A DNA stretch of 64,000 nt from Escherichia phage WPEC3, in the sequence record PV611058; one strand, given 5' to 3'. The notes beneath the pieces are model-generated. The model had not been told where the DNA came from and ran no database searches. It was given only the letters and a program-made list of their open reading frames with translations. Numbering within the stretch: the first letter of the stretch is position 1; every line of letters begins with the position of its first letter. Position numbers and translations under genes: made by a program. Shown here one piece after another: positions 33,880-34,478 of the stretch.

Positions 33880-34445
33880 CAGTCGAATTATACACGCTTC
33901 GCATGTCTAATTCGACGAAAGTACTATGATTTGTTTTAATTAATATTGACGGGGTTTGCTTGAGCATATTTCATCCCCCCGCAGGGGAAAGAACAAAAAA
34001 GTTTGACGCTGGTGGCCTTCACATAGTTCATATCACGAATTCTCTTCCGAGGCGAAAGCGGGTTGCTCTGTTTCTCTCTATCGCGGTTCTTGTAGCAACG
34101 GTCGTCGGTCTTAAACATCCCGACACATAATACAAATACCATATGACCAGTACTTGTATTTGATTTCACGAATTTTGGACGCAACTATTTTGTATAAATT
34201 ACGACCGCAAATTTCTCATGAAATCTCCCTTAGATAATTGGTAAGGTGCGATCCTTATATGTCTATCGAGGAACTCTCTTTATCCTATTGGAGTTCTTTA
34301 TACAGCCGCATTGCCGTGAGTGGTTCAAACTATGCCATCATCTAACGGGTTTCATTTGCTGTTCGTACTGAAAGGACTACTCATCTACCCTCTACTTTTC
34401 GAGTGGATTAGGCTTTAATCATTTCCATATGGAACCTTTCAGGAT
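33880..34445 (-). ncRNA. candidate structured non-coding region, higher GC than surroundings (identity unknown)
   Basis: About 570 nt with no credible ORF in a genome otherwise packed with genes; visibly more G+C-rich; multiple short inverted repeats; preceded by a terminator and a TGATATAAT element. Confidence 0.25.
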
Positions 34446-34478
34446 TAAAAAAAGGCGACAACATATTCTGCTGTCACC
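34446..34478 (-). terminator. rho-independent terminator
   Basis: 9-bp stem ggcgacaac/gttgtcgcc with G-U pairs, followed on minus strand by seven U; 19 nt downstream of the 34497-35357 stop. Confidence 0.6.

Follow-up and report, generated by a model that had tools for sequence, protein, structure and literature searches.

A large structured noncoding RNA (ncRNA) appears to be encoded by Escherichia phage WPEC3, in a window of 64,000 nucleotides (nt) from record PV611058; the window is the whole stretch of DNA that was analyzed. Positions 33826-34496 are predicted to be a free-standing minus-strand gene for an RNA of ~530 nt, counted to the second of two short direct repeats (R1 and R2), and possibly of ~615 nt with two more hairpins. 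Comparison with homologs describes a two-domain fold with at least 18 conserved helices, four of them pseudoknot or tertiary pairings, and with long invariant single-stranded blocks between the helices. An apparent extended -10 motif of a sigma-70 promoter is conserved before nearly every family member, and the copies read as ancient paralogs that are orthologous locus by locus. The RNA family is seemingly new, with no match in Rfam 15 at the thresholds tried and no published description in open-access text. The interpretation favored here, and considered moderately probable, is that of a free-standing minus-strand RNA gene with a conserved fold, most likely expressed early and acting in trans.

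Covariation and the predicted fold

The headline proposal of the first-pass annotation, a candidate structured RNA, is supported by covariation, by the conserved promoter motif and by a consistent assignment to the minus (coding) strand. The alignments comprised 24 non-identical copies for RNAalifold, 34 homologs with a mean identity of 66% for helix refinement and 31 sequences for the 3' half; alignment is uncertain in loops, in an optional module and in the 3' tail. RNAalifold predicted 76 pairs from the 24 copies, 46 of which show compensatory double changes. The curated structure contains 97 base pairs in 18 helices, the four pseudoknot or tertiary pairings included. Standard pairs fill 91.7% of its cells in alignment A2, compared with 39-43% when the partners are slid by 1-3 columns. 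Likewise, 62 of the 97 pairs have changed on both sides (22-27 when slid), as have 369 individual cells (38-76 when slid), and the covariation score is 0.452 against less than 0.1. In four of five measures, none of 500 shuffles reached the observed values. The 3' half, aligned separately, is 93.1% paired as opposed to 40-52% for slid partners, and agrees with the full structure.

Wobble pairs identify the strand. G-U pairs 16/23 and 91/111 are invariant in 31 of 31 sequences, and pair 14/25 is U-G in 25 and C-G in 6. Since invariant G-U pairs, or pairs alternating between U-G and C-G, would be A-C mismatches on the opposite strand, the functional strand is the minus strand of the window.

The four crossing interactions were located by a mutual-information scan and not by a folding program. 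The largest, PK1, has 7 bp and joins the loop of H10 (34147-41) to the strand that follows H13 (34033-27). It pairs UCAUAU with AUAUGA in the window and AUUGUAU/AUACAAU, GUCGAAU/AUUCGAC, UUCAUGU/ACAUGAA or AUUGCAU/AUGCAAU in other copies; all seven pairs are standard in 32-34 of 34 sequences and five show compensatory changes. PK2 connects the loop of H6 (34285-80) with 34237-32, the strand before UAAGGGAG (GC19/AU5/UA5 and CG21/AU9). PK3 unites 34311-09 with 34261-59, that is, the CAU of GAUAGACAU with the AUG of CAAUGCGG (GC25/AU9). PK4 clamps the 3' strand of H1 with 3 bp, pairing 34380-78 with 34367-65; its middle pair is UA15/CG10/AU9 and standard in 34 of 34 sequences. A long-range GAC/GUC closure proposed by RNAalifold was dropped, because it is the CAAUR strand with which the Y of GAUAGAY covaries (PK3) and because GUC has become GAC in Serratia sp. 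2723 without compensation. The paired positions of the other long-range RNAalifold proposals (GGGA/UCYC and the alternative UAAGG/CCGUUG) never vary.

A covariance model of the 126-position 3' core, CM R1, is highly selective. In ~1.8 Mb it retrieved every true member and nothing else, at E <= 5e-14; unrelated loci with a shared 17-nt pattern, ~1.3 Mb in all, gave zero matches. Known families, on the other hand, are not matched. The 4227 covariance models of Rfam 15 gave 0 matches in the whole window at gathering thresholds, and in six related loci the sole match was an unrelated thiamine pyrophosphate (TPP) riboswitch. Relaxing the cutoff to E <= 10 yielded only terminator look-alikes flanking the element in the window and nothing that recurred across six paralog loci. 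Ten related loci besides the window were covered in all, with no relevant match. The models for OLE, raiA, GOLLD and ROOL have no match either, and the absence of a visible tRNA signature, noted earlier by eye, agrees with ARAGORN, which finds 0 tRNA or tmRNA genes in the window. No prior description was found in open-access full text, subscription journals being outside reach. Two apparent likenesses were discarded: one to the hammerhead core (GAUGAG...CGAAA), which has no covariance-model support and in which the hammerhead U4 is not conserved, and one to RNase P (ACAGAGCAACCCGCUU), again without covariance-model support.

The gene, its promoter and its parts

An Asteriusvirus-type jumbo phage is the source of the window, which shares 99% identity with Escherichia phages Ecwhy_1, fEgEco12 and WPEC5 and ~90% with 121Q. 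By a crude tiling of open reading frames (ORFs), ~94% of the ORFs lie on the minus strand and intergenic gaps measure 3 nt at the median and 160 nt at the 90th percentile. The longest gap is the segment at 33826-34496 (671 nt). It is bounded by the upstream gene 34497-35357 (minus strand, 286 amino acids, phrog_15199), which lies outside the RNA, and by the downstream gene 33283-33825 (minus strand, 180 amino acids, phrog_16210). The latter most likely starts at ATG 33825 and a longer GTG start at 33879 is probably wrong; the 543-nt form is annotated in WPEC5 and G17, and the phrog_16210 profile aligns over residues 1-180. With that start, the stretch described at first as lacking a credible ORF remains so and is even larger than stated. 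Its reported enrichment in G+C is equally evident, at 0.42 for 33946-34445 compared with 0.343 for the whole window. Identity to 121Q is 95.0% over the gap itself and falls to 89.7% once 200-nt coding flanks are added, so that the gap is better conserved than its flanks.

A protein-coding or recently decayed gene, in which the 82-amino-acid ORF at 33936-34184 or the small ORFs annotated in GenBank would be real, has next to no likelihood. It is true that the gap holds ORFs of 35-82 amino acids and that small hypothetical proteins have been placed within it in several records, those of WPEC5 and 7t3 among them. The 82-amino-acid ORF, distrusted from the start for its composition, is intact only in the window and in the 121Q ortholog; the other 32 of the 34 homologs, at a mean nucleotide identity of ~66%, carry 1-12 in-frame stops, and most also have a frameshifting length difference. 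Furthermore, the substitution pattern tracks base pairing and not codons, and neither this ORF nor any other in the gap has a meaningful Pfam or PHROG match. The option of a decayed gene fails on the same grounds, with no conserved ORF and no protein-family match. A small ORF beginning at GGGGGGAUG was ruled out as well, as its frame shifts between orthologs.

GenBank calls of small hypothetical proteins, or of an over-long N-terminus, also lie atop other copies of the RNA, for instance 121Q 247799-247954 (gene 516) and 193357-193968 (gene 416), WPEC5 CDS0568-0571 and 7t3_0243-0245. These overlying protein calls are probably spurious. Other long ORF-free gaps in the window, at 45942-46421 (480 nt), 38567-38913 (347 nt) and 56083-56373 (291 nt), are AT-rich (GC 0.29-0.34) and unlike the RNA gene. 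The 121Q genome has in addition ~2 kb without an annotated gene at 135194-137161, after an array of ~17 small paralogous genes of ~180-190 nt each.

Upstream of the fold lies a candidate sigma-70 promoter on the minus strand. The -10-type element recorded in the first-pass annotation, TGATATAAT at 34483-34491 (TATAAT with TG), holds up: together with a -35-like hexamer, GAGACA at 34505-34510, within the last codons of the upstream ORF, it forms the arrangement GAGACA-16 nt-TGATATAAT, which matches the consensus at 10 of 12 positions and includes the TG extension. TATAAT is invariant, and TG nearly so, before 26 aligned copies, and an element of the TGnTATAAT type precedes 38 of 41 homologs, including most bacterial copies. 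A box of the TGGAAC/TGAGAC/GGGACA type occurs at the same distance, ~17 nt upstream of the -10, in other copies. Extended -10 promoters of the sigma-70 class are read by unmodified host RNA polymerase, and for this reason synthesis of the RNA probably begins within the first minutes of infection and is probably constitutive in integrated bacterial elements.

Just past the promoter is a hairpin with a U7 tail (34446-34480, minus strand; 12 pairs, then TTTTTTT), with arms spanning 34480-34452 and a U-run to 34446. It is the sole terminator-like site found in 33600-34700. Its presence had been correctly noted; its assigned role as the boundary terminator of the RNA does not stand, as it sits between the promoter of the RNA and the folded body. 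The hairpin is retained with differing sequence, through compensatory changes, in the focal-locus orthologs (121Q, 7t3, GAP32 and metagenomic copies) and is absent between promoter and folded body in the other paralogs, and the GenBank annotation of G17 and GAP32 places a terminator at the same site. It is best read as the intrinsic terminator of the upstream gene, one that transcripts from the RNA promoter escape. The start of the RNA, placed from the position of the -10, is predicted at ~34477-34474, inside the 5' arm of the terminator. Within 34446-34491, then, the -10 lies upstream of the hairpin and the predicted start lies within it. Transcripts coming in from the upstream gene would form the full stem beside the U-run and stop; those begun at the RNA promoter would lack the base of the stem, and their shortened hairpin would be set apart from the U-run, so that transcription could continue. 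Through this overlap, read-through would be stopped and the new transcript would not.

Counted from its predicted start to where R2 ends, the minimal gene covers 33946-34476 on the minus strand (~530 nt), as delimited by the span of nhmmer and covariance-model matches and by covariation. All its parts lie on the same strand. The 5' domain (34232-34442), defined by covariation and mutual information, holds helices H1-H8 together with PK2, PK3 and PK4. The 3' domain core (34027-34160), defined by covariation, consists of the long hairpin H10, of H11 and H13-H15, and of PK1, and carries the invariant blocks GACCGUUG and GAGAGAAAC..ACCCGCUU. Between the two domains, at 34161-34225, is an optional peripheral module of ~40-60 nt with the motif GUACAA..AG.UBCGUCYAAAAUU, read by eye from the alignments. 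In some copies the module follows UAAGGGAG, in others it lies inside H15, a few have it at both sites, and by-eye reading finds it at neither site in the 327-kb copy of 121Q. It looks like a relocated peripheral domain for tertiary contacts.

Downstream of the 3' core, the alignment of 34 homologs defines the two direct repeats of 10-11 nt: R1 at 34003-34013 (A-Y-C-A-K-C-G-U-C-A-R) and R2 at 33946-33955 (A-Y-C-Y-C-G-U-C-A-R). Their Y and R positions are identical between the repeats in 34 of 34 sequences (UU27/CC7 and GG20/AA14), and in Serratia sp. 2723 CGACAA replaces CGUCAA in both. The variants differ among paralogs of one genome. Such a pattern would fit two equivalent sites for one factor, alternative pairing to a strand outside the RNA, or homo-purine and homo-pyrimidine contacts that join the two strands. 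Between the repeats is hairpin H17 (33970-33993; UUC.UUCCCC UGC GGGGGG.AUGAA), family-wide and covarying, to which the previously noted inverted repeat cccc-gca-gggg (33976-33986) belongs; that repeat is real and extends to 33993-33970. C-G alternates with U-G through H17 (e.g. UG20/CG10), a sense-strand-specific pattern, and its GGGG is invariant. In most paralogs, the focal one excepted, a covarying hairpin with a U-run stands between R1 and H17, and its flanks are able to pair too, lengthening the stem.

The region 3' of R2 (alignment A5) was too heterogeneous to yield a consensus fold, and because the automatic fold failed, hairpins H18 and H19 rest on inspection. By eye, a pair of additional stem-loops is present there in most copies. 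H18 (33882-33916; GUCGAAUUA...UAAUUCGAC) is the other inverted repeat seen at first, gtcgaatta/taattcgac; it is likewise real (33916-33882), and 121Q keeps the pairing through a compensatory change from C-G to A-U. A ..CG(A/U)AG(U/C)G.. motif recurs in its loop, and stem-loops with a AACGNAGUGA-type loop are seen by eye after R2 in most phage and bacterial copies. TGTATAAT (33894-33887), in the 3' arm of H18, is a possible promoter for the downstream gene. H19 (33860-33880; GGUGUUGA UGAAG UCAACGCC), also drawn by eye, has equivalents such as UUGACAUUC-GAA-GAAUGGCAA after H18 in other copies and may be the 3' end of the RNA or a piece of the next promoter.

Paralogs in jumbo phages and copies in bacteria

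A core of ~480 nt is still ~70% identical in phages of distant genera, namely GAP32, CBB, Serratia BF, 7t3/Munch, and phages of Erwinia, Yersinia and Xanthomonas, mostly in unannotated DNA; in this comparison each genome has 4-5 separate matches. Across RaK2-like jumbo phages the BLAST matches number 2-5 per genome, and a divergent query places the element in RaK2, K64-1 and Muenster as well. In the whole 121Q genome, a profile search finds four diverged copies and no more. They lie at 90.3, 192.8, 247.5 and 326.7 kb, each of them on the plus strand, and the covariance model agrees; their GC is ~0.40 in a genome of 0.341. The 326.7-kb copy lies between endonuclease VII and the baseplate gene cluster, both on the minus strand, and as both neighbors are on the opposite strand it is not a leader for them. 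The same arrangement, with a TGGTATAAT promoter, occurs in CBB. It also persists in a metagenomic phage with just 40% identity in the baseplate hub protein, where the RNA again adjoins the hub gene. Across genera, copies cluster by locus, with identities of 81-99% within groups and 55-76% between them.

Divergent members were seen in the metagenomic contigs OERT01000392.1 (L224, 9213-9444 and 8006-8860) and OERT01000271.1 (L239, 1008-1235), with the 3' half conserved and the 5' half much changed. The RNA in the former adjoins a T4-type baseplate hub gene, as in 121Q. The member in the latter has a TGTTATAAT promoter, and a major facilitator superfamily transporter and a 1366-amino-acid BNR-repeat protein lie nearby, which is odd for a phage. 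The 121Q copy at 90266-90788 starts ~35 nt past the stop of a phage gene for an RNA polymerase sigma factor (89267-90232), and another copy is ~4 kb from a second sigma-like gene (321985-322824); this nearness to sigma genes may be coincidental.

Bacterial genomes, one per species, and metagenomes were scanned with a pattern of 17 specified bases, and the matches were filtered by nhmmer and the covariance model. With so few specified bases, matches were mostly due to chance, in roughly the number to be expected; real members amounted to only 4 of 117 genome loci and ~20 metagenome loci. As the scan used an exact pattern, this distribution outside phages is a lower bound. In Citrobacter amalonaticus (L109, 3520-4131), the order is pilus genes, a large serine recombinase, the RNA, an ORF, a convergent CI-type repressor and a divergent helix-turn-helix gene. 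A serine recombinase is followed by the RNA in Serratia sp. 2723 (L121, 5401-5904), and a serine recombinase with two ParB-like genes precedes it at the tilS junction in Serratia fonticola (L134, 3692-4151). A metagenome-assembled genome (MAG) of the Enterobacteriaceae (L073, 6426-7041) has thiMD with its TPP riboswitch, the RNA and a convergent CI-type repressor. The bacterial single copies are at the edge of integrated elements, ~0.1-2 kb from a large serine recombinase or beside a CI-type repressor that faces them.

The element is carried by 2 of 5,426 complete E. coli genomes. In E. coli LR-29-1 (NZ_AP027515.1), it occupies a 1.4-kb unannotated gap (L280, 20001-20583) of an island of ~11 kb (L280, 15900-26700) between ffs and ybaA, which also encodes a tyrosine integrase split by IS3, a resolvase and a conflict-system trio of DuOB, DUF488 and mSLOG-DUF4326. 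This copy shares 76% identity with one of the phage paralog groups and falls inside the phage diversity. A collection of 72,556 plasmids gave no match to the element. No protein partner common to the islands and the phage was found, the only shared proteins being a 118-amino-acid protein (E. coli and Citrobacter elements) and a CI-type repressor (Citrobacter element and Enterobacteriaceae MAG).

Possible functions of the RNA

That the RNA acts in trans as a folded molecule, either alone or bound to protein, is given about an even chance. Trans action is favored because invariant junctions together with four pseudoknots suggest a precisely shaped three-dimensional object, because there is no constant neighbor and one paralog converges on its neighbors, and because the temperate elements place the RNA in the integrase/repressor region, the usual site of independently expressed accessory genes. 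The conserved three-dimensional core would then be the working part, with R1 and R2 as two equivalent recognition sites, and the 4-5 paralogs, long diverged and distinct in the sequence of their PK1 pairing, would be non-interchangeable versions. As jumbo phages, temperate elements and a defense-type island all carry the RNA, a role in phage-host or phage-satellite conflict is suggested, and not one in a single operon.

The closest known RNAs in kind are perhaps GOLLD and ROOL, which are large, ornate and phage-associated, with function unknown, and have been studied by cryo-electron microscopy (PMC12286853). Like these, the present RNA has several hundred nt, many helices and pseudoknots, and invariant junctions, and it is carried by phages and prophages without being bound to one operon. 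GOLLD and ROOL self-assemble, and by analogy the paralog-specific PK1 sequences would fit self-assembly here. The resemblance is nonetheless of kind only: their Rfam models do not match, they belong to Lactobacillales or rumen bacteria where the hosts here are Enterobacterales and their jumbo phages, and the present family has 4-5 diverged copies per genome, none of those examined beside a tRNA gene. The phi29 packaging RNA (pRNA, RF00044) is similar in being a phage-encoded structured RNA driven by an early promoter, which for the present RNA is a prediction, and in having covarying loop-loop complementarity, intermolecular in pRNA. It differs in its length (~174 nt against >500 nt), in the lack of an Rfam match, and in lineage, the present phages having a T4-type terminase and nothing that ties the RNA to the portal. 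The nearest experimental precedent comes from PA5oct, a jumbo phage of a related clade, in which RNA sequencing (RNA-seq) defined four actively transcribed putative long ncRNAs in ORF-free regions of 236-619 nt, described by their authors as without similarity to other phages (PMC7318152). Related phages, in other words, express long ncRNAs at high levels. CM R1 found no family member in the 6-25 kb region of PA5oct, which contains ncRNA001 and ncRNA002.

Several considerations weigh against a trans-acting RNA gene. The case for action in trans rests on the absence of a constant neighbor and is only inferred, and the start and 3' end of the RNA are predictions from its sequence. The open-access literature yielded no RNA-seq study of this phage clade and no transcript of the family. 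The folding energy of the single sequence is unremarkable (z = -1.17), so that support for the structure comes from covariation and not from thermodynamics; the homolog set amounts to only ~15 sequence groups, and consequently some compensatory changes are inherited and not independent. R1 and R2 have no complementary partner within the RNA, and their identical variation could equally mark two sites for a DNA-binding factor. Finally, should the internal hairpin between R1 and H17 terminate efficiently, the conserved 3' block would fall outside the main RNA, which would favor a role in cis or at the DNA level.

Such a role is the essence of the main alternative, a cis-acting, transcription-primed replication origin or some other signal for hijacking replication or packaging, which is considered unlikely. 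The promoter would fire into the element, and the structured transcript would form a lasting hybrid with DNA close to the G6/C4 hairpin and to the AT-rich stretch that follows R2, priming a T4-type replisome in the manner of ColE1 RNA II or T4 oriF/oriG; R1 and R2 would resemble iterons, and islands would carry a copy for replication or mobilization by an infecting jumbo phage. T4 has several R-loop origins, and the 4-5 copies here are spread round a ~350-kb genome on one strand (121Q 90, 193, 247 and 327 kb), each held at a fixed locus across genera as expected of a position-bound element. The phage encodes a T4-like DNA polymerase, a gp41-type helicase, a UvsW-like helicase and RNase H, and R1 and R2 vary identically, like repeated binding sites. 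In Pseudomonas, small integrase-bearing islands without transfer genes are transduced as satellites of jumbo phages (PMC12595487), and the E. coli copy is in an island of that kind. Like ColE1 RNA II, the element would give an untranslated transcript of ~500 nt, made from a promoter and dependent on its fold; like T4 oriF/oriG/oriE, it occurs several times in a T4-type genome; and a G-run near the 3' part is a further likeness to both. However, there is no detectable sequence similarity to either, and known primers have no pseudoknotted core; known R-loop origins need neither four pseudoknots nor long invariant single-stranded blocks. The G-U wobble patterns through H17 indicate selection on the sense-strand RNA and not on duplex DNA, and the complexity of the structure likewise speaks for selection on the RNA itself. 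Because the paralogs of one genome carry different R1/R2 variants, a single initiator protein would have to accept them all. Moreover, the temperate-element copies lie between integrase and repressor, outside the replication module, the cumulative GC skew of 121Q tracks gene orientation and shows nothing at the copies, and the 72,556 plasmids have 0 matches.

Regulation in cis at the RNA level is less probable still. A leader with riboswitch-like or processive-antitermination control of downstream read-through, one of the identities first suggested, would gain from the lack of a convincing terminator between the RNA and the next gene at the focal locus, from the attenuator-like layout of most paralogs, in which a terminator-like hairpin is followed by conserved sequence, and from the co-orientation of 3 of the 4 121Q copies with their downstream genes. 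The genes downstream differ at each locus, those at the focal locus being the 180-amino-acid protein, a Dam methylase and a cytidylyltransferase-like gene. With no constant downstream gene, and with one paralog antisense to both neighbors, this identity is not sustained: the 327-kb copy and its orthologs in CBB and the distant metagenomic phage converge on their neighbors, and the RNA of the Citrobacter element, like that of the Enterobacteriaceae MAG, faces the 3' end of a convergent repressor gene. No riboswitch in Rfam matches, and no riboswitch is known to reach the length and pseudoknot count of the RNA. A relic or derivative of a self-splicing or mobile ribozyme, be it group I/II-like or another selfish RNA, that reached several intergenic sites and has R1 and R2 as past or present cleavage-ligation junctions, is very improbable. 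Its multiple copies and complex pseudoknotted core, the identical short repeats bracketing a hairpin-rich segment, and neighborhoods rich in mobile elements would suit such an origin, and group I introns of T4-like phages are comparable in size, pseudoknotted core, conserved junction sequences and phage setting. Against this, no Rfam intron or ribozyme matches at E <= 10 in several paralogs, RF00028 included, no gene is interrupted, and there is neither exon context nor a homing endonuclease. Each locus is stable, with orthologs across genera and no hint of recent movement, and nearly every copy has its own promoter. The intron remnant initially entertained falls with it, as no Rfam intron matches at that threshold and the flanking ORFs are complete and belong to separate PHROG families, with which they align over their full length; other copies of the RNA sit in unrelated intergenic contexts.

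For the favored trans-acting RNA, a more specific and clearly tentative proposal can be made. The family may form a new class among large functional RNAs, either as a ribozyme or as a self-assembling machine that recruits protein, and jumbo phages would need several non-interchangeable versions of it. Prophages and satellite-like or defense islands of the same hosts would copy it and in this way hijack the phage, mimic it or block it. R1 and R2 would serve as its substrate or docking sites, and the paralog-specific PK1 pairing as an address by which the versions are kept separate. Large RNAs seldom combine many conserved helices with pseudoknots and invariant junctions, and in bacteria and phages those that do are usually ribozymes, ribonucleoprotein cores or, as seen lately, self-assembling RNA cages. 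The result corrects several GenBank records with small hypothetical proteins on RNA genes. As the family is present in cultured E. coli phages such as 121Q, PBECO4, G17 and phAPEC6, it is amenable to experiment, and its 4-5 ancient paralogs per genome invite genetic dissection. Its common carriage by phages and by integrated elements of their hosts may reveal an RNA-level link between jumbo phages and satellites, prophages or defense islands.

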